Below, one piece after another: positions 2 to 63,478 of a stretch of DNA of 64,000 nucleotides. Made by a program: the position numbers and the translations under genes. The notes below the pieces were generated by a model. It was given only the letters and a program-made list of their open reading frames with translations. It did not search any database and was not told where the DNA came from. Position 1 is the stretch's first letter. Each line of letters opens with the position of its first letter. Source of the DNA: a bacterium (GTDB lineage Bacteria; Patescibacteriota; Minisyncoccia; UBA6257; JAGOQP01); contig JAKANP010000003.1 of NCBI GenBank assembly GCA_021812345.1, forward strand, positions 82-64,081, in the 5' to 3' direction.

Positions 2-1027
2 GATATCGGGACAACATCCATAAAAATTGCGGAACTGTCAAAAGGGAAACCCAATCCTAATTTGGTAAATTATGCGGTTTTGGAAAGCTACAGTCATTTT
101 GAAAGAGCCAATAATGTTATTCAGGCGAACTCTTTGAAAATTTCAGAGCCTGAGGCAACCGCTTTGTTAAGAACTCTTTTAAAACAAGCAAAATTTTCCA
201 GCAAGTCGGTAGTTGCTTCAATACCGTCTTATGCCTCTTTTATAACTTTTATGGAAATGCCCGCAATGAGCCAGGCCGATACCGAAAAGGCGATGGGATT
301 TCAAATCAAGCAAAATATTCCGCTACCTCTTTCGGAAATTGCCGTTGATTGGATAAGAGTCGGGGAACGCACCGATGAAAACGGATTTTCAAAACAACAA
401 ATAATGCTCATTGCCATTCCTAATGAAACAATAAATAAATACAAAACAATTTTTAAAAATGTCGGATTGTCTTTGAGAGCATTGGAAGTTGAAAACCTGG
501 CTTTCTCCAGGGCGGTAATCGGCGCCGACAAAACCGCAACGTTAATTGTTGATATCGGCGCTCATTCAACAAACATCAGTGTCGTGGACCAGTCGTTTTT
601 GAAACACAATACCCAGATTGATTACGCCGGAGACACTTTAACGGAGGCGGTAGTTAAGGGATTGGGGATAAGTTATAAAAGAGCCGAGGAATTGAAAAAA
701 CAAAGGGGCATTACCGGCGGGGTTGGCGAGTATGAGTTATCCACATTGGAAACTCCGTTCATTGATGTTATAATAAGTGAGGTTATAAAAGTTAAAGATA
801 ATTTTGAAAATAATTTCGGAGTAAAAATTCAGCGATGTCTTTTGATAGGTGGGACGGCTAATCTTTTGGGAATAGATAAATATTTTGAAAACCAACTGGG
901 ATTGCCGACAGCGTTAGGAAACGGATTACTTTTCGTTTCAACCCCGTCCGAACTTAATGTCGTCGAAAGAGAACTTCAAACGAGATTCGCTATTGCCATC
1001 GGACTGGCAATTAAAAATTTTATTTAG
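2..1027 (+). CDS. pilM: Type IV pilus assembly protein PilM (5' partial, starts before window)
   Basis: Frame 2 reads DIGTTSIKIAELSKG from nt 2 (PilM/actin-like N-terminus) before the first ATG at 62; PilM-like length and position ahead of pilN/pilO. Confidence 0.8.
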   Translation, partial: DIGTTSIKIAELSKGKPNPNLVNYAVLESYSHFERANNVIQANSLKISEPEATALLRTLLKQAKFSSKSVVASIPSYASFITFMEMPAMSQADTEKAMGFQIKQNIPLPLSEIAVDWIRVGERTDENGFSKQQIMLIAIPNETINKYKTIFKNVGLSLRALEVENLAFSRAVIGADKTATLIVDIGAHSTNISVVDQSFLKHNTQIDYAGDTLTEAVVKGLGISYKRAEELKKQRGITGGVGEYELSTLETPFIDVIISEVIKVKDNFENNFGVKIQRCLLIGGTANLLGIDKYFENQLGLPTALGNGLLFVSTPSELNVVERELQTRFAIAIGLAIKNFI

Positions 1028-2573: not shown

Positions 2574-4313
2574 ATGGAAAATAAAGTTTTAATAGATAAA
2601 TTAATCGCAGCCGGATTTTTAACTCAAGACAACGGACAGAAGCTTCTTCAGGAAGCTTCTTTTGCCAAACGTCCGGTTGAAGATCTGATTTATGAAAGAC
2701 GAATTGTTCCGGAACAATCTTTGACTGAGACCAAGAGTCAGATTTTAAATATTCCTTACAAAAATGCGGATGTTTCTTCCATTGGCGACAATTTGATGAA
2801 AATTGTTCCCGAGACGACAGTCAGAAATTTCAGAGTAGTTCCGATGGAATTAAAAGACGATTTGCTGATTGTCGGAATGGTTAATCCGGACGATCCAAGA
2901 GCGCAAGAGGCGCTTAAATTTCTCGCCCGTCAAATTAAAGCCAATTTGGGAATTTATTTGATACCAATGTCGTTATGGGAAGCGGTTTTGAGAAAATATT
3001 CTCCTTATCGCAGTGAAGTTGAAGAGGCGGTCAAATCCATATCTTCTACCAGTATTAAAAAAATGTCTTCAGGACAACAGATTGTTCAGTTGGAAGCGGG
3101 GCAATCGGCGGGAGAAGATGCGCCGATTATTCGCATTGTCGCTTCAACGTTAAAAGAAGCGGTTTATCAACGATCTTCGGATATTCACATTGAACCGCAA
3201 AGAAATCGATTGAGAATCAGATTTCGTTTGGATGGAGAACTTCAGGAAGTAGCATCAATGCCAATAGAACTTTATCAGCCGATAGTTTCCCGTATAAAAG
3301 TTTTGTCAAATTTAAAAATTGACGAGACTAGAATTCCTCAGGATGGAAGATTCAGAACGATGCTTTTGGGGCGCGATATAGATTTTCGTGTGGCGACATT
3401 TCCGACGCCTGTCGGTGAAAAAGTGGCTATTCGTGTTTTGGATCCGACCGTCGGATTGAAAGGATTGGAAGAGCTGGGACTTTTGGGAAGAAATCTAACT
3501 ATCATAAAAGATGGCATTCAAAAACCTTTTGGAATGATTTTAATTACCGGACCGACCGGATCCGGAAAATCAACAACTTTGTATGCTTTGATGCAGGTTT
3601 TAAATAAAGAAGATGTTAACATTGTAAGCTTGGAAGATCCGGTTGAATATTATATGGACGGACTCAATCAATCCCAGGTTCATCCGGAAATCGGATATGA
3701 TTTCGCTTCCGGATTAAGGCAAATTTTGCGTCAGGACCCGGACATTATTATGGTTGGTGAAATCAGAGACAACGAAACGGCAGCGCTGGCGGTTCACGCC
3801 GCTTTAACCGGTCACATAGTTTTGTCCACCTTGCACACCAATAATGCGGCCGGAGTGGTTCCCAGATTAATAGACATGAAGGTTGATGAATTTTTACTGC
3901 CGGCTTCTTTAAATTTGATGGTTGGACAAAGATTAGTTCCGCGTCTTTGTCAGCAGTGCAAGAAAGAAAAAGAATTGACTCCCGAATTGAGAAAAATAGT
4001 TGAAGGTGTTGTTGCTGAAATGAATCCCTCCGATTTGAAAGATTTTGGAGTTTCTTCTCCTTATAAAATTTACGAGTCACCGGGATGTTCGGCATGTAAC
4101 GGAAAAGGAGTTTCGGGCAGAGTGGCGATGTTTGAAATATTAAGAATGACTTCGGAATTGGCGGAAGTTATAGATCAAAAAGGAACCGAAGGCGATATCG
4201 TTAAAGAAGCGGTAAGACAAAAGATGATAACTTTAAGACAGGACGGAGTGGTCAAAGCGCTTAAAGGGCTGGTATCGCTTGAGGTTGTATTAAGAGAAAC
4301 CGAAGAATTATGA
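2574..4313 (+). CDS. pilB: Type IV pilus assembly ATPase PilB (GspE family)
   Basis: Walker A GPTGSGKSTT, Asp/His boxes, C-terminal tetracysteine CQQC...CSAC, 579 aa. Confidence 0.9.
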   Translation: MENKVLIDKLIAAGFLTQDNGQKLLQEASFAKRPVEDLIYERRIVPEQSLTETKSQILNIPYKNADVSSIGDNLMKIVPETTVRNFRVVPMELKDDLLIVGMVNPDDPRAQEALKFLARQIKANLGIYLIPMSLWEAVLRKYSPYRSEVEEAVKSISSTSIKKMSSGQQIVQLEAGQSAGEDAPIIRIVASTLKEAVYQRSSDIHIEPQRNRLRIRFRLDGELQEVASMPIELYQPIVSRIKVLSNLKIDETRIPQDGRFRTMLLGRDIDFRVATFPTPVGEKVAIRVLDPTVGLKGLEELGLLGRNLTIIKDGIQKPFGMILITGPTGSGKSTTLYALMQVLNKEDVNIVSLEDPVEYYMDGLNQSQVHPEIGYDFASGLRQILRQDPDIIMVGEIRDNETAALAVHAALTGHIVLSTLHTNNAAGVVPRLIDMKVDEFLLPASLNLMVGQRLVPRLCQQCKKEKELTPELRKIVEGVVAEMNPSDLKDFGVSSPYKIYESPGCSACNGKGVSGRVAMFEILRMTSELAEVIDQKGTEGDIVKEAVRQKMITLRQDGVVKALKGLVSLEVVLRETEEL

Positions 4314-4382
4314 GCCACATTTTTATAAAATAAATATTTTTTAAAATTTTGAAATAAAAATATAATAAGATATAATATCAAT

Positions 4383-5453
4383 ATGACTGACTACAAACAA
4401 AAATTAAATGATTTGCTTTTAATGTGCGCCAAGCAAGACGCTTCCGATTTGCACATTGCCGTCGGAAGACATCCGACTTTGAGAATTGACGGCGCTTTAG
4501 TTCCTTTGACCAAGGAATCAATTTTAACTCCTCAAGATACCGAAGGATTGGTTACTGCAATTTTAACCGAAACTCAAAAGGGAGAAATGTCTTTAAAAAA
4601 ACAAGTTGACTTCTCATATACTTTTGAAGATAAGGCGCGTTTCAGGGTTAATACTTATTATCAAAGAGGATTTATGGCGATGGCCATGAGATTGATTCCG
4701 GCAAAAGTAAAAACCGTTGAAGAATTAAGATTGCCCCCGATAGTTCATGATTTTTCATCTATATCTCAAGGATTTGTTTTGGTTGTCGGTCCCGCCGGTC
4801 ATGGAAAGTCCACCACTTTGGCGGCAATCATTGATGAAATAAATCACAATAGAACGGAACACATCATAACCATTGAAGACCCGATAGAGTATCTTTTTTT
4901 ACAAGACAAAAGCATTGTCTCTCAGAGAGAGGTTAAAATAGATACCGTTGATTTTTCCGATGCCTTAAGATCGCTCTTAAGACAAGACCCGGATGTGGTG
5001 ATGATAGGAGAAATGCGCGATACCGAATCAATTTCCACGGCGCTAACCGCCGCCGAAACGGGACACTTGGTTCTTGCCACTTTGCACACAAATTCCGCAT
5101 CGCAAACTATTGATCGTATTATCGACAGTTTTCCGGCAGAACAGCAAAGCCAAGTAGCTTCACAGCTTTCTGCGGTATTAGTTGGAATAGTTTCAGAACG
5201 TCTTATTCCAAGAATTGATGGCGGAAGAGTTCCGGCTTGCGAAATCATGATCGCCAATCCGGCCATAAGAAATTTGATTCGTGAAAGAAAAACTTATCAG
5301 ATAGATTTGGTTATTGAGACTAATTCTCAAGAAGGAATGATAACCTTAAATCGTTCGCTTACCGATTTGGTCAAAAGAAGGGAAATCAGCTTGGAAAATG
5401 CGGAAACTTATTCGTTGAATCCTTCGGAATTAAGAATTTTGTTGGAGAAATAA
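4383..5453 (+). CDS. pilT: Twitching motility / pilus retraction ATPase PilT
   Basis: Walker A GPAGHGKSTT, 356 aa, PilT-like motifs (LRQDPDVVMIGEMRD, TGHLVLATLHTNSA). Confidence 0.9.
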   Translation: MTDYKQKLNDLLLMCAKQDASDLHIAVGRHPTLRIDGALVPLTKESILTPQDTEGLVTAILTETQKGEMSLKKQVDFSYTFEDKARFRVNTYYQRGFMAMAMRLIPAKVKTVEELRLPPIVHDFSSISQGFVLVVGPAGHGKSTTLAAIIDEINHNRTEHIITIEDPIEYLFLQDKSIVSQREVKIDTVDFSDALRSLLRQDPDVVMIGEMRDTESISTALTAAETGHLVLATLHTNSASQTIDRIIDSFPAEQQSQVASQLSAVLVGIVSERLIPRIDGGRVPACEIMIANPAIRNLIRERKTYQIDLVIETNSQEGMITLNRSLTDLVKRREISLENAETYSLNPSELRILLEK

Positions 5454-5498
5454 TTTTTAATTTTAATTTCTTAAGAAACATTAAACGGCGAAAGAATT

Positions 5499-6713
5499 AT
5501 GAAATTCAAATATCAAGCAAGAAATAAAACAGGAGAGCTTCAGGTGGGATTTGTTGAAGGCCCGAGCAAGGATGCCGCCATAAGCACGCTCACTACTCAC
5601 GAGCTTTTTGTCTTGAGTTTGGAGTCCGCCGAAAGAAAAAGCCCCTTTGATAGCATTTTGGGTTTTTTTAACAGAGTCAAAACAAAGGATTTGATGGTTT
5701 TTACCAGGCAACTGGCGACAATGCTTGAATCCGAAATGCCGTTAAACAGCGCCTTGCAATCTCTTTATCAGCAAACTCCTAAAGTCGCTTTAAAGGAAGC
5801 CGTCTTTGAAATTTTACAGGATGTTGAAGCGGGACTTTCTTTATCGCAAGCGCTTGAAAGACAACAACCAATTTTTTCCGACTTTTATGTGAGTATGGTT
5901 CGCTCGGCTGAAGTAACCGGACGTCTTGAAGAGTCGATGATGTTTTTGGCAAGCTACATAGAAAAAGAAGCCGGTTGGAAAGGAAAAATTTCAACTGCCA
6001 TGATTTATCCCGGAGTTTTAATCACGATGTTTGTTATTGTTGCCGGAGTTATGGTGGCTTTCGTTTTTCCTAAAATTGGTCCGGTCTTTCAGGATTCGGG
6101 AGTACAACTTCCATGGATGACGCAGGCGCTTTTGACTGTCGGTTCATTTTTGACCAACTGGTGGTGGCTGGCGATATTACTTGTTGCCGGTATTGCATTC
6201 ATAATTGTCGATTATTTTAAAAGTCCCGAAGGAAAAGCGGTTGGAAATCAGTTGATTATAATTGTGCCGGTTTTTGGGGAGCTTTTCAGAAAAATTTATA
6301 TCGCCAGATTTTCTCAATCGCTCAGCGTTTTGATTAAAGGAGGAATTCCCATAACTCAGGCGATTGAAATCGCTTCTTCTACTATCGGTAATGTGGTATA
6401 CGAGGAAATTTTAAAAGATATTGCCGAAGGAGTGAGAGAGGGGGCCTTGCTTTCAAATTTGCTGTCTTCTTATCCAAAATATTTTCCTTTGATGGTTGGC
6501 CAAATGGCGGCAGTCGGAGAAAGCACCGGAAGAGTTGATGAGATGATGAGCAAAATATCCGATTTTTATGATAATGAAGTAAATGATATGATGGCAAACC
6601 TGTCCGAGCTTATTCAGCCGATATTGATTTTGATTATCGGAGTTTTAATCGGACTTCTTTTTGCCGCAATATTGCTTCCAATCTACAATTTGGCGCAATC
6701 GTTTAAGATTTAA
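5499..6713 (+). CDS. pilC: Type IV pilus platform protein PilC (GspF family)
   Basis: 404 aa, two T2SF-like halves, polytopic membrane protein. Confidence 0.85.
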   Translation: MKFKYQARNKTGELQVGFVEGPSKDAAISTLTTHELFVLSLESAERKSPFDSILGFFNRVKTKDLMVFTRQLATMLESEMPLNSALQSLYQQTPKVALKEAVFEILQDVEAGLSLSQALERQQPIFSDFYVSMVRSAEVTGRLEESMMFLASYIEKEAGWKGKISTAMIYPGVLITMFVIVAGVMVAFVFPKIGPVFQDSGVQLPWMTQALLTVGSFLTNWWWLAILLVAGIAFIIVDYFKSPEGKAVGNQLIIIVPVFGELFRKIYIARFSQSLSVLIKGGIPITQAIEIASSTIGNVVYEEILKDIAEGVREGALLSNLLSSYPKYFPLMVGQMAAVGESTGRVDEMMSKISDFYDNEVNDMMANLSELIQPILILIIGVLIGLLFAAILLPIYNLAQSFKI

Positions 6714-39786: not shown

Positions 39787-40452
39787 ATGAATCCTTTGGG
39801 TAAAGTTAAAATCAAATGGTCTCCGAATTTTGCTTACGCGATTGGGTTGATAGCGACAGACGGAAATTTATCATCAAATGGCAGATGTATTGTTTTTACG
39901 TCAAAAGACTTGGAAATGATAAATAATTTTTTAAAATGTCTATCTGTATCTTCAAAAATAAGCATGAAGGCTAGGAGCAATGAGAAAGAGAAGAAGTATT
40001 ATTATGTTCAGATCGGGGATATAAATTTCTATAAGTTTCTGAATTCTATTGGACTTACTCCGGCAAAATCAAAAACTATCGGAATTATTAACATACCTGA
40101 CAAATATTTCTTTGATTTTTTGCGGGGACATTTTGATGGGGATGGCACTTCCTATTCTTATTGGGATAAGCGTTGGAAATCAAGCTTCATGTTTTATACA
40201 GAGTTCATATCGGCCAGTAAAAAACATATTGATTGGCTTAGGGGCGAAATTTCTAAAAAAATTGGAATCAATGGGCATATAACAAAATCAAAAAATAATT
40301 CAGTTTATCAATTAAAATATGCGAAAAGAGAGTCTACAAAATTGATTTCAAGAATGTACTATGGTAAAAAGGTTGTATGTCTTTCTAGAAAAATAGAGAA
40401 AATCAAAAAGGCATTAGCAATAAATAAAGTTGAAGATGCCCAGGTGCTGTAA
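39787..40452 (+). CDS. Free-standing LAGLIDADG homing endonuclease (double motif)
   Basis: Two LAGLIDADG motifs: YAIGLIATDGNLS and FLRGHFDGDGTSY, 221 aa; not inside an obvious intron or intein host; 3' end overlaps tRNA-Leu(GAG) by 15 nt. Confidence 0.8.
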   Translation: MNPLGKVKIKWSPNFAYAIGLIATDGNLSSNGRCIVFTSKDLEMINNFLKCLSVSSKISMKARSNEKEKKYYYVQIGDINFYKFLNSIGLTPAKSKTIGIINIPDKYFFDFLRGHFDGDGTSYSYWDKRWKSSFMFYTEFISASKKHIDWLRGEISKKIGINGHITKSKNNSVYQLKYAKRESTKLISRMYYGKKVVCLSRKIEKIKKALAINKVEDAQVL

Positions 40453-40521
40453 CTGGTAGCCAGGCCAGCTTGAGGTGCTGGTGTCCGCAAGGACGTGGAG
40501 GTTCGAGTCCTCTCCTGGGCA
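40438..40521 (+). tRNA. tRNA-Leu(GAG)
   Basis: GCCCAGGTGCTGTAACTGGTAGCCAGGCCAGCTTGAGGTGCTGGTGTCCGCAAGGACGTGGAGGTTCGAGTCCTCTCCTGGGCA; anticodon loop TTGAGGT, long variable arm. Confidence 0.8.
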
Positions 40522-40558
40522 CAAAACAAAACAGCCAAATAGGCTGTTTTGTTTTGTG
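40522..40558 (+). terminator. Strong hairpin immediately 3' of tRNA-Leu(GAG)
   Basis: acaaaacaaaacagcc-aaat-ggctgttttgttttgt, 16-bp perfect stem. Confidence 0.6.
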
Positions 40559-40720
40559 CAGGAAGCAGGTAAATTTATTTGCTTGTGTGAGGATTCGAAC
40601 GACGGAGTATGTGCGAGCCAGCAGGCGAGCGCACGAGTCGGTGCCCAGCCCGAGCTGAGCGACTGGCGAAGCGAGAGGCGAGGGTAAATCCCTTACCTGC
40701 CGGTAGGCAGGTCTCCTGGG

Positions 40721-41050
40721 TACTACTTCGCTCCTACTTCGTAGAAACTTCGTAGGACGCGGTAAAGCTTCGTAGCACAAAGCACTACTTTGCTCCTACT
40801 TCGTAGAAACTTCGTAGGACGCGGTAAAGCTTCGTAGCACAAAGCACTACTTTGCTCCTACTTCGTAGAAACTTCGTAGGACGCGGTAAAGCTTCGTAGC
40901 ACAAAGCACTACTTTGCTCCTACTTCGTAGAAACTTCGTAGGACGCGGTAAAGCTTCGTAGCACAAAGCACTACTTCGCTCCTACTTCGTAGAAACTTCG
41001 TAGGACGCGGTAAAGCTTCGTAGCACAAAGCACTACTTTGCTAAAGCTTC
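40721..41050. repeat. Tandem array of 5.2 near-identical 62-bp units with phased TTCGTAG-type subsites (iteron-like)
   Basis: Unit CTCCTACTTCGTAGAAACTTCGTAGGACGCGGTAAAGCTTCGTAGCACAAAGCACTACTTTG repeats without spacers; each unit has three exact CTTCGTAG plus one degenerate copy with start-to-start spacings 11/11/20/20 bp. Confidence 0.9.
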
Positions 41051-41248: not shown

Positions 41249-42025
41249 ATGGAAGCGATGGAGAGAATCAAGGGTTTGATGGACGAGAAGGCCGTCGAGA
41301 AGTGGGCCGGTGAGTTCGGGACCTGGAAGGACAAGATGGTCCACGAGCTCGCCAACGAGCTGTCCAAACGAGGGTTCTCCTCCGAGAACCCGGCAGCGGC
41401 AAAGGACGTCAAGGCGGCCGAGCAGTTTCTGGCCGCCAAGAGGCAGCTCGTGGAGGCGAAGGTCGACGAGACCTTCACCCCCGAGAACATCGCCGCCGCA
41501 CATCTGGACTGCATCATCAAGGTCCAGGTGGATGAGACGCAGGAGTTTCGTGTCATCTGTCAGTCGCCTCGTCACGCCGGGGCGAACATGGCAGTTCTCC
41601 CGACCCAGAAGTTCATCGTCCGCAAGAACGCGGACGGCGAGCTGACTCGGATGTGCCACCAGGGCACATCCGAGGCGATCGTCACCGGCGACTTCCTGGT
41701 CACCGGGGAGGGGCGGATCATGCGCTTCTGTCCCTTCTGCAAGGACAAGGCGATCGCCGCCGCCCGCGAGCGTGGCGAGAAGTTGACGTTCTACCGCCTC
41801 GGCGAGGCGGTGAACAAAATCTCCCGCATCCGGGAGAACGAGGCGCGCGAGGCCGAAGAGAACGCCAAGCGCGAGGCTGAGGCCGAGCGGATGGAGCACT
41901 CGGCTTCCCGACAGATCGCCGGCAAGCGCGTGGACTCCCGACGCGCCGACTTCAACCGTCGGCACACCTCCGGACTCAAGCGTGCCAGCGGAAAGTTGGC
42001 CCGCGATCTCATGAGCGAAGACTGA
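41249..42025 (+). CDS. Orphan GC3-rich protein (foreign-looking), Cys motif FCPFC
   Basis: 258 aa; coding region about 62% GC with strongly G/C third positions in a 35% GC genome; good SD; terminator at 42088; no recognisable domain; the antisense ORF 41198-42046 is a high-GC artefact. Confidence 0.6.
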   Translation: MEAMERIKGLMDEKAVEKWAGEFGTWKDKMVHELANELSKRGFSSENPAAAKDVKAAEQFLAAKRQLVEAKVDETFTPENIAAAHLDCIIKVQVDETQEFRVICQSPRHAGANMAVLPTQKFIVRKNADGELTRMCHQGTSEAIVTGDFLVTGEGRIMRFCPFCKDKAIAAARERGEKLTFYRLGEAVNKISRIRENEAREAEENAKREAEAERMEHSASRQIAGKRVDSRRADFNRRHTSGLKRASGKLARDLMSED

Positions 42026-62332: not shown

Positions 62333-62345
62333 ATATTAAATAAAA

Positions 62346-62376
62346 AACCGTCCCAATTTATCGGGACGGTTTTTTA
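62346..62376. terminator. Bidirectional terminator between mltB-like gene and prfA
   Basis: aaaaaccgtcccaatttatcgggacggtttttt. Confidence 0.6.
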
Positions 62377-63105
62377 TTGCTGTTTAGAAAATTCTTTGAT
62401 TATAGGATCCAGGTCGCCGGCTATTATTTTTTCTATGTTGTGAAATTTTTTACCTATGCGATGGTCGGTTACGCGATCATCGGGGAAATTGTATGTTCTT
62501 ATTTTTTCAGAACGTTCCATTGAACCGATTTGTTCTCTTCTTAGTGCTCCCAAGGAGCTGGCTTGCTGGCGCTGCATTTCTTCGTAAAGCTTTGAACGCA
62601 AAATAGTCAGCGCGCTTTCTTTGTTGGCGTTTTGAGAACGTTCGGTCTGGGAAGCGACAACAACTCCGGTAGGTTTGTGTAAAACTCTCACTGCCGTTTC
62701 AACTTTATTGACGTTTTGTCCTCCGGGTCCCGACGAGCGGAAAAATGAAATTTCCAAATCGTTTGGATTTATTTCAAAAACTTTTTGTTCCACTACCGGA
62801 AGTATTGCCACTGAAGCGGTTGAAGTATGGACTCGTCCGGATTTTTCTGTTGCCGGAACTCTTTGAATTCTGTGGACTCCGGATTCATGTTTCAAAGCTT
62901 CGTAAACTCCGGCTCCCTCCATTTTTCCGATAAAAGTTTTATATCCGCCAAGAGTTGTTTGGTTTGAATCAATAACAGAAAATTTCCAGTTTCTTTTCTG
63001 GGCATATTTTTGGTACATATTAACCAATTCACCGGCAAAAATTGAGGCCTCGTCACCACCAGCTCCGGCTCGTACTTCTATGATTATTTTGTTTATATTA
63101 TCCAT
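62374..63105 (-). CDS. prfA: Peptide chain release factor 1-like, lacking N-terminal domain 1
   Basis: PxT-type motif RVPATEKSGRVHTS (RF1 specificity), GGQ motif SGPGGQNVNK; begins at the equivalent of E. coli RF1 residue ~105 (IIEVRAGAGGDEA); only 97 nt separate it from rpmE. Confidence 0.75.
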   Translation of the reverse strand: MDNINKIIIEVRAGAGGDEASIFAGELVNMYQKYAQKRNWKFSVIDSNQTTLGGYKTFIGKMEGAGVYEALKHESGVHRIQRVPATEKSGRVHTSTASVAILPVVEQKVFEINPNDLEISFFRSSGPGGQNVNKVETAVRVLHKPTGVVVASQTERSQNANKESALTILRSKLYEEMQRQQASSLGALRREQIGSMERSEKIRTYNFPDDRVTDHRIGKKFHNIEKIIAGDLDPIIKEFSKQQ

Positions 63106-63202
63106 ATGCTATGAAATACGAAAAAAGTACGAAACTACGAAATTACGAAAAAATTATCTGCTTTCGTACATTCGTAAAAATTTCGTACTTTCGTAGAGAA
63201 AA
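63106..63202. repeat. Inverted array of 4x TACGAA and 4x TTCGTA half-sites between prfA start and rpmE stop
   Basis: TACGAA at 63117, 63128, 63136, 63144; TTCGTA at 63163, 63171, 63182, 63190 (spacings 11/8/8 and 8/11/8); followed by ACTACTTTGCT, which also occurs in the 62-bp repeat unit. Confidence 0.8.
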
Positions 63203-63478
63203 CTACTTTGCTTTCTTAGTTTTTTTAGCAGCTTTAGCGGTTCTCTTTTCGGTTTTGCTTCGGGTTGTCGTTTTTGACGCTTTTTCTCTCTTGGCTTTAA
63301 ATTTCTCAACGCGTCCCGCTGTATCTATCAATTTTTCTTTACCGGTATAAAACGGGTGGCAAGCATAGCAAATTTCGACGGCAATTTCTTTTTTAGTTGA
63401 GCCGACATAAAAAACGTTTCCGCAAGCGCAAGTAACCTTGGCGTTTGGATAATATTCCGGGTGAATTTCTTTTTTCAT
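63203..63478 (-). CDS. rpmE: 50S ribosomal protein L31 with Lys-rich C-terminal extension
   Basis: [10 protein letters not shown]...CACGN...[10 protein letters not shown] bL31 zinc-ribbon motifs. Confidence 0.9.

Follow-up and report, generated by a model that had tools for sequence, protein, structure and literature searches.

A TACGAA/TTCGTA box array between rpmE and prfA is one copy of a dispersed palindrome family in Patescibacteria

Introduction

The dispersed palindromes of proteobacteria, namely the repetitive extragenic palindromes (REP) with the bacterial interspersed mosaic elements (BIME) and the REPINs, are short, imperfect, RAYT-mobilised sequences found in extragenic gaps, including those inside operons. 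They occur as inverted doublets, which form long hairpins, and as singlets, their copies are homogeneous within a genome, and, as parts of the transcripts of adjacent genes, they can stabilise the upstream mRNA or attenuate transcription. Miniature inverted-repeat transposable elements (MITEs) are non-autonomous and carry terminal inverted repeats, and the arms of foldback elements are composed of short tandem repeats. Tandem subsites of 7–8 bp are bound by ribbon-helix-helix dimers, as in the metboxes of MetJ, the heptads of omega, and the boxes of ParG. Here we describe an array of four TACGAA and four inverted TTCGTA boxes located between rpmE, encoding ribosomal protein L31, and prfA, encoding release factor 1 (RF1), in a stretch of 64,000 nucleotides (positions 82 to 64,081 of contig JAKANP010000003.1, assembly GCA_021812345.1; termed the window) from a Paceibacteria-type organism. 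This array is one copy of a family of box-built palindromes dispersed in Patescibacteria and is not specific to prfA.

The Patescibacteria, or candidate phyla radiation (CPR), are a large, mostly uncultured, and largely host-dependent bacterial branch, whose cis-regulatory and repetitive DNA is, to our knowledge, almost uncharted. No description of the TACGAA/TTCGTA motif or of such elements in Patescibacteria was found in the searchable literature, and the family is apparently undescribed so far. By analogy, it appears to be closest to REP/BIME/REPIN sequences or MITEs, and at the rpmE–prfA locus to an intrinsic attenuator. Labels of the type L### denote loci of this analysis, and coordinates without such a prefix refer to the 64-kb window.

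The box array in the rpmE–prfA gap

The TACGAA boxes start at positions 63117, 63128, 63136, and 63144 and the TTCGTA boxes at 63163, 63171, 63182, and 63190, so that all eight half-sites and their spacings of 11/8/8 and 8/11/8 nt are present as initially annotated. In the plus-strand view, the left arm (63117..63150) is formed by the TACGAA(A) boxes with the spacing 11/8/8 and the right arm (63162..63196) by the (T)TTCGTA boxes with the spacing 8/11/8, the outer one of which reads TTCGTAG. The complete array (63117..63195, minus strand) has a loop of 13 nt between the two sets of hexamers; the loop sequence AAAATTATCTG (63151..63161, plus strand) is not conserved in the family. The array gives an identical reading on either strand and covers 79 of the 97 nt that separate rpmE from prfA, leaving 7 nt to the rpmE stop codon and 11 nt to the prfA AUG. 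As both genes are encoded on the minus strand, the array lies 3' of rpmE as well as 5' of prfA (order rpmE, gap, prfA); its initial description as an upstream region of prfA is correct, and it is equally a downstream region of rpmE.

A comparison with shuffled sequences, which had been proposed as a control, gave a divided answer. The total number of TACGAA/TTCGTA hexamers in the window is at expectation (34 observed vs. 34.8 in shuffles), whereas their local clustering is far beyond chance, because eight hexamers occur in the 79-nt array and ~0.01 would be expected there, as computed from the window counts. A further 15 hexamers belong to the 62-bp repeats described below and 11 to the other ~63.6 kb. 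A permissive scan for degenerate boxes, which returns ~4 clusters per shuffled window, revealed no further array copies in the window. The array sequence is unchanged across three independent assemblies (L001–L003), and an assembly artefact can therefore be dismissed.

A family of box arrays in Patescibacteria

When 185,579 species, each represented by one genome, were scanned with the pattern TTTCGTA-N1-4-TTTCGTA-N1-4-TTTCGTA, at least 120 loci were obtained versus an estimated 5–20 by chance, some of the matches being plain microsatellites in unrelated phyla. The matches listed include at least 41 inverted arrays of 3+3 or more exact boxes, among them 20 exact 4+4 arrays with a spacing of 7-8 / 9-11 / 8 per arm. 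Members of the family have two pairs of TACGAA(A) boxes, followed by a loop of variable length and by four (T)TTCGTA boxes in inverted orientation, with a spacing of ~8/10/8. An alignment of 13 arrays with MAFFT split some of the boxes; membership was judged by rule-based counts. At least ten named CPR lineages carry arrays among these matches, the hosts being Saccharibacteria, Doudna-, Uhr-, Harrison-, Magasanik-, Moran-, Falkow-, and Nealsonbacteria, Sungiibacteriota, Parcubacteria, and unclassified Patescibacteria. In a viral collection, 99 pattern matches were found, none of which shows the 4+4 layout spaced by 8/10/8; one of the 99 (L156) is an inverted but irregular cluster, and viral contigs were rejected as the source of the arrays.

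Several array-bearing metagenome-assembled genomes (TPA_asm) are labelled 'Gammaproteobacteria'. In one of them, CAYGHM01 (L068 and L119), deposited as 'uncultured Gammaproteobacteria', RecA is 80–84% identical to Magasanikbacteria RecA, and it appears to be a mislabelled CPR genome; the others are probably mislabelled as well.

The polarity of the arms is strict. Among the matches listed, 72 of the 116 non-microsatellite arms are partnered as 5'-TACGAA...TTCGTA-3' on both strands, and wrong-side boxes of the other kind were encountered for only two of the 116. Loops measure 3–64 nt, and ~400 nt in L039. At this Saccharibacteria locus (L039, 1709-2182), the widely separated arms enclose a frameshifted gene of the GxxExxY type (PD-(D/E)XK-like), and in the type IV pilus operon of the same locus pilT is bordered by arrays on both sides.

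The boxes are constrained, and they extend to TACGAAA through the first A of the spacer. In orthologous Uhrbacteria copies, the boxes show no differences at 54 positions, whereas 13 of the 102 non-box positions differ (p = 0.0045). The orthologous element as a whole is 92% identical, compared to 74% for the DNA of the adjacent gene, which implies that the element is constrained or that its copies evolve in concert. Within a single genome, spacers, loops, and flanks are common to different copies (L049 and L083; at least ten modules in the Uhrbacteria genome MGEP01), and subfamilies with the distinct termini GGA...TCC, C...G, and CA...AG span lineage boundaries. The flank GAGCAAAGCGA is confined to a single subfamily (L008 and L076).

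Concerning the genomic context, 26 of the 30 classifiable arrays among the matches listed have co-directional gene neighbours, with a median distance between array and gene of ~20–30 nt and a few distances above 100 nt. Arrays adjoin ~25 unrelated housekeeping genes, in some cases within ribosomal-protein operons; the neighbours include L11|L1, L22|S3, L5|S8, IF2|RbfA, L9|MnmA, DnaK, NusA, NusG, RecA, DnaG, LigA, MraY, and pyruvate kinase. A common regulon was rejected in view of this functional diversity. A general association with promoters was rejected as well, as promoter-like sites facing into the arrays (19) and out of them (20) are equally common. In L048 (1771-1810) and L071 (4900-4938), which belong to different lineages and have different neighbouring genes, a homologous flank with TTGAAG-17-TATAAT ends 3 nt before the first box, and on the basis of these flanks this subfamily seems to carry a promoter along.

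The array of the window has the 4+4 boxes of the family with TACGAA on the 5' arm of both strands, and, in a genome of the Patescibacteria, it fills a narrow space between two genes of the same direction. Its two arms differ in spacing, the right one being canonical (8/11/8) and the left one (11/8/8) not. Its assignment to the family is secure.

The rpmE–prfA junction in related genomes

The adjacency of rpmE and prfA is widely conserved in Paceibacteria, but no TACGAA array was present upstream of prfA in any of 79 Paceibacteria loci with 50–78% RF1 identity. Together with the arrays beside unrelated genes elsewhere, this led us to reject an element specific to prfA. The only related case is L232, where a degenerate TACGAA/TCCGAA array is located in the rpmE leader, downstream of a promoter-like site. 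The same locus contains a box variant within its 16S rRNA gene: a hairpin of three CACGAA and three TTCGTG boxes (545-669, minus strand) is enclosed in ~240 extra nucleotides of the 5' part, apparently inserted into the V1 region or derived from its expansion.

In relatives with 78–94% RF1 identity, the gap always holds a long imperfect hairpin, and the sequences of these hairpins are unrelated, although several likewise consist of short units in tandem: degenerate ACGCGAA/TTCGAA/TTCGTA boxes are found in L004 and L309, AGTGGTTAG/CTAATCACT units with a T-run behind them in L006 and L307, units of ACAACTN in L308, and units of TAAGAGR in L226. The position thus keeps a hairpin and not the TACGAA sequence, and the conservation of the gap, for which a comparative check had been suggested, holds for the former and not for the latter. 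The rpmE gene of the window ends in TAG (63203-63205), directly upstream of the RF1 gene. The same stop codon terminates rpmE in 17 of 48 rpmE–prfA loci (35%; among L226-L309) versus a background of 22% (p = 0.026, ignoring phylogeny), and in six of the eight closest loci, two of which (L004 and L309) have the same sequence; in two close relatives the stop codon is TAA.

Transcription signals and fold of the array

According to the initial annotation, the gap must hold the prfA promoter. The promoter scan detected no promoter-like site within the gap; the loop contains GATAAT on the minus strand, without an acceptable -35 element. A good site, TTGACT-16-TATTAT (63552-63525, minus strand), is situated upstream of rpmE and, judged by its sequence, is likely to be the promoter of an rpmE–prfA transcript, and prfA is followed by a clean canonical intrinsic terminator with an 18-bp stem and a T-run (62339..62378, minus strand). 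The promoter assignment for the gap is thus not supported.

The further suggestion that a large imperfect hairpin could form just behind rpmE is borne out by the fold. The sense strand folds into a long imperfect hairpin with -35.8 kcal/mol for 121 nt (z = -6.25), compared to -27.5 kcal/mol for the opposite strand. Three inner helix pairs constitute a stem of -22.1 kcal/mol, directly followed by UUUUUU (63121..63126, minus strand), which is a terminator-like configuration inside the array, with a stable stem and a U-tract immediately behind it as in intrinsic terminators. The U6 run results from the shifted long spacer of the left arm (11/8/8). A consensus terminator scanner did not call the inner stem with its U6, because this stem is long, AU-rich, and interrupted. 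Rfam gave no match to the array at the gathering score, and with permissive settings only chance-level matches far below the family cut-offs, so that a known Rfam family was rejected.

The 62-bp repeats and the islet

The initial annotation had linked the array to 62-bp repeats in an islet of the same window by a shared motif and an 11-mer said to be present in every unit. The tandem repeat (40722..41042, plus strand; 5.2 copies, 98% identity) lies downstream of tRNA-Leu, and each unit contains three copies of CTTCGTAG spaced by 11/20/31 nt, which sum to ~six helical turns. The repeat is missing from syntenic relatives, and the 62-bp unit is absent from viral contigs. The 11-mer ACTACTTTGCT (63202..63212, plus strand) does occur in the repeats, but at four of the six unit starts only, the units at 40722 and 40970 reading ACTACTTCGCT. 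Read on the complementary strand, it comprises the last rpmE codons A-K, the TAG stop codon, and one further base; with ten of its 11 bases belonging to the end of rpmE, and with the related 7-mer AGCAAAG/CTTTGCT, its core, not enriched near arrays (six of 107 array regions vs. ~3.7 expected), it lends no support to a link between gap and repeats.

The TTCGTA(G) core is a different matter. The probability of one hexamer being used by two independent repeats of the window is estimated at p ~0.001–0.005, so that a coincidence appears unlikely from the sequences, and in other Patescibacteria (L062, L065, and L079) the box recurs close to ordinary arrays, in tandem repeats of long period or in giant inverted repeats. 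Of the proposal that array and repeats share a binding factor or an ancestry, the part based on the common core and on boxes conserved over spacers therefore stands, and the parts based on the 11-mer and on islet regulators fall.

The latter were rejected as box-binding candidates. The islet has the order L19 – tRNA-Leu(GAG) – GC-rich open reading frame (ORF) of ~255 aa – ORF of ~260 aa – PheS, and this order is conserved in relatives, as is the GC anomaly of the first ORF, from which it follows that the islet is not foreign. Neither ORF has a Pfam or PHROG match, and because they are conserved and syntenic in relatives in which TTCGTA repeats number zero and no boxes lie nearby, nothing implicates them as box binders. 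The first ORF (41249-42025, plus strand) has 58% GC in a genome of ~36% GC and contains no known domain; its syntenic homologues (L310, 2777-3538; L313, 4124-4885; 37% identity) show GC contents of 62% vs. 45%. As the homologues are also GC-rich, we regard it as a conserved gene of anomalous composition and not as a recent import.

Comparison with described elements and possible function

In our opinion, there is a roughly 50% probability that the array, a copy of the dispersed family, acts as a co-transcribed hairpin with an attenuator or RNA stability/processing effect, and that its boxes are kept by a sequence-specific factor. The array would be transcribed within the rpmE–prfA message, the transcript would fold into an imperfect hairpin of ~80 nt containing the three-helix stem and U6, and this hairpin would partially terminate transcription or influence the stability or processing of the RNA, by which the expression of the abundant L31 could be decoupled from that of the low-abundance RF1. 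The identity of the boxes would be maintained by a putative sequence-specific factor and not by prfA-specific regulation, the likeliest candidates being a protein that spreads the element or a protein that binds it. The attenuator or stability effect fits the finding that relatives keep some hairpin at the rpmE–prfA junction. A stem of -22 kcal/mol with U6 just after a highly expressed gene resembles intrinsic terminators and attenuators, as do the hairpins of the relatives at the same place, several with T-runs. The array stem differs from these in being AU-rich, long, and broken by internal loops, whereas the other terminators of the host genome are ordinary and GC-rich, like the one after prfA. 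A sequence-specific partner is required in this reading, because a hairpin alone leaves the box identity across lineages, the lone quartets, and the free spacers unexplained; conserved boxes combined with unconserved spacers are what such a factor would produce. A conserved trans-acting partner is likewise suggested by the identity of the box from Saccharibacteria to Parcubacteria, by the stereotyped 4+4 palindrome, and by its conservation above the neighbouring gene in one orthologous pair.

Several findings weigh against this explanation. About 44 of the 116 arms (~40%) are lone, canonically spaced quartets without even a degenerate partner, and the hairpin therefore cannot be the sole thing that matters. 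The spacer bases other than the first A are complementary at chance level (14 of 47), the sense strand is not significantly more stable in its fold than the antisense strand (18 vs. 8 arrays, Wilcoxon p = 0.34), and most family members lack a U-tract behind the array. Strong terminators would not be tolerated at some positions, as arrays also lie inside ribosomal-protein operons. No target-site duplication was found in the flanks of the 41 arrays and no transposase or autonomous copy in 120 loci of 8 kb. Finally, selection on the gap itself is not demonstrated, since the window and L309, the nearest relative, are only 52% identical there, like other noncoding DNA, compared to 80–82% for coding DNA.

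Two alternatives place the emphasis on the DNA itself, and we regard both as possible but doubtful. In the first, the array is a double-stranded operator, with TACGAAA as the subsite of a small DNA-binding protein such as a ribbon-helix-helix dimer, the quartet as the binding unit, and two inverted quartets as the full site, by which the transcription of neighbouring growth-related genes, here prfA, would be repressed or blocked. Like the arrays of MetJ (8 bp), omega (7 bp), and ParG (8 bp), the box arrays consist of tandem 7–8-bp subsites in direct and inverted orientation with a conserved core and free spacer bases, the spacing of 7–8 bp being found inside the box pairs, and conserved boxes with variable spacers and loops are expected of operators, as are lone quartets in both orientations to the neighbouring genes (8 vs. 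5) and a low copy number per genome. Most neighbours function in translation, replication, or central metabolism, and in L048, L071, and L121 the first box begins 1–3 nt after a perfect TATAAT with TTGAAG 17 nt upstream. The known ribbon-helix-helix arrays, however, are located at the promoter of their own regulator or at a plasmid centromere, whereas the box arrays lie dispersed among housekeeping genes, within tight operons, and even before a tRNA gene, and show no general preference for promoters (19 vs. 20). Loops of 3–64 nt, and once of ~400 nt, would be too variable for one oligomer bound to both arms, and the lack of arrays in most of the examined Paceibacteria loci does not suit a conserved global regulator. 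In the other alternative, the array is a selfish or neutral mobile palindrome, MITE- or REPIN-like, which is tolerated in the rpmE–prfA spacer and has no function for the host. The sporadic distribution, with many copies in some genomes and none in the 79 related loci, the near-identity of intragenomic copies including loops and flanks, subfamilies that cross lineages, contigs ending at arrays (L028 and L030), the gene remnant inserted in the loop of L039, and the CACGAA/TTCGTG hairpin in a variable region of 16S rRNA (L232) are in accordance with mobility, and solo arms could be remnants of full elements. With MITEs and foldback elements, the arrays share inverted arms of fixed polarity, an interior of 3 nt to ~400 nt, solo ends, subfamilies with distinct termini, and a patchy distribution across genomes. 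With REP/BIME/REPIN sequences, they share the position in extragenic gaps and operons, the inverted and single forms, the homogeneity within a genome, and the predicted effects on the mRNA. They differ from the latter in that an arm consists of four 7-nt boxes and not of one palindrome, in the small copy number (one to ~ten detected per genome), in the presence of the same box in very distant lineages, and in their termini: instead of a 5' GTAG/GGAG, the arrays have 5'-(C)TACGAA...TTCGTA(G)-3', with GTAG at the 3' outer end. Unlike MITEs, the arrays are not consistently flanked by direct repeats (41 arrays inspected), and neither a transposase, a RAYT gene, nor an autonomous copy was found at the array loci examined, the largest interior, that of L039, holding a degraded gene of the GxxExxY type and not a transposase; no gene for RAYT (Y1 transposase) was seen in the 64-kb window, which was only partly annotated. 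The 92% identity of the orthologous Uhrbacteria copies next to coding DNA with 74%, and solo arms without decayed partner arms, also argue against a purely mobile palindrome.

The remaining two readings tie the array to prfA and are considerably less probable. UAG is read by RF1 only, and the array could be an RF1-sensing attenuator in which ribosomes, at times of RF1 scarcity, stall at the UAG of rpmE and melt the 5' arm, so that the stem followed by U6 is prevented and prfA expression rises. The UAG is located 7 nt from the first box, the stem and U6 lie inside the array, all close relatives retain some hairpin in the gap, and TAG is over-represented at this position (p = 0.026, ignoring phylogeny). 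This statistical signal is weak and phylogenetically non-independent, however, two close relatives use TAA, and the box sequence itself is left unexplained, as arrays of the family adjoin many genes unrelated to translation termination; such a mechanism is attractive but improbable. Very improbable is the original proposal of a prfA promoter region bound by a regulator that also recognises the 62-bp repeats and may be encoded in the islet. The TTCGTA(G) core, a hexamer otherwise rare in the window, and the 11-mer are indeed common to both sites, but the gap lacks a promoter-like site in the promoter scan, 79 relatives have no array upstream of prfA, the 11-mer coincides with the coding end of rpmE, and the islet ORFs match no known domain and are syntenic in box-free relatives. 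The idea of a dedicated prfA regulator tied to the islet is thereby removed for this window.

Further candidate systems were rejected. The R''/R' cores (RYYYAAC / GTTRRRY) of integron attC sites are absent, and the neighbours are syntenic housekeeping genes and not cassettes. For a DNA uptake sequence (DUS/USS-like), the hexamer is too rare, with 11 occurrences in ~63.6 kb outside the clusters, below the shuffle expectation of ~35. TIGR (Tas-associated) arrays consist of ~36-nt units with UG/CCA box motifs and two variable spacers and adjoin a Nop-domain gene (PMC12045711); these motifs and this architecture are absent from the box arrays, which have no variable spacers.

For practical purposes, the arrays matter because they break assemblies and because they are open to misreading as gene-specific operators, as happened in the initial annotation; they may also be useful as natural insulators or attenuators in the CPR genetic tools now in development. 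A more far-reaching idea, which we put forward tentatively, is that the TACGAAA quartet is the recognition site of a protein shared across much of Patescibacteria, be it a small DNA-binding regulator, a partition-type protein, or a new kind of transposase, with the 62-bp repeats as a second platform. The arrays would then represent a superphylum-wide system of cis elements punctuating housekeeping operons, and might coordinate growth-related expression in symbionts with reduced genomes. That they mark a new protein–DNA recognition system shared across Patescibacteria is possible but doubtful.

Flanking genes and additional observations

The rpmE gene (63203..63478, minus strand; stop codon UAG at 63205-63203) encodes a protein of 91 aa. 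The product of prfA (62374..63105, minus strand) has 243 aa and lacks the N-terminal domain 1, only positions 100-194 of the 194-position PCRF profile being matched. Since the best 120 homologues (Paceibacteria or Wolfebacteria types) are equally short with 233–263 aa, the truncation characterises the whole clade and is no local artefact. The prfA AUG is not preceded by a Shine-Dalgarno sequence, which is uninformative, as such sequences are hardly used in this genome: a Shine-Dalgarno-like motif at -20 to -4 was found for only one of 48 long ORFs of the window, and translation initiation in the host organism is essentially Shine-Dalgarno-independent.

Two of the related prfA loci show rearrangements or elements of their own. 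In L006 (1385-1505), a 93%-identical relative, a duplicated prfA 5'-end fragment encoding MDNGVSKIIMEVRAGAGG is located upstream of prfA and is followed by unrelated sequence, which suggests a past insertion or rearrangement at the prfA start. L004 contains genes for an RVT_1 reverse transcriptase and bAvd (4024-5590) a few kb from prfA, a combination that is the hallmark of diversity-generating retroelements; the pair is absent from the corresponding part of the window.

In the window, an ORF for a LAGLIDADG homing endonuclease (39787-40452, plus strand) lies between the L19 gene and tRNA-Leu(GAG) (40438-40522), its end reaching into the start of the tRNA; in the relatives L310 and L314, a LAGLIDADG gene is missing at the corresponding position. 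A perfect 18-bp hairpin, GCACAAAACAAAACAGCC / GGCTGTTTTGTTTTGTGC (40519-40559), overlaps the last bases of tRNA-Leu and runs past its 3' end.

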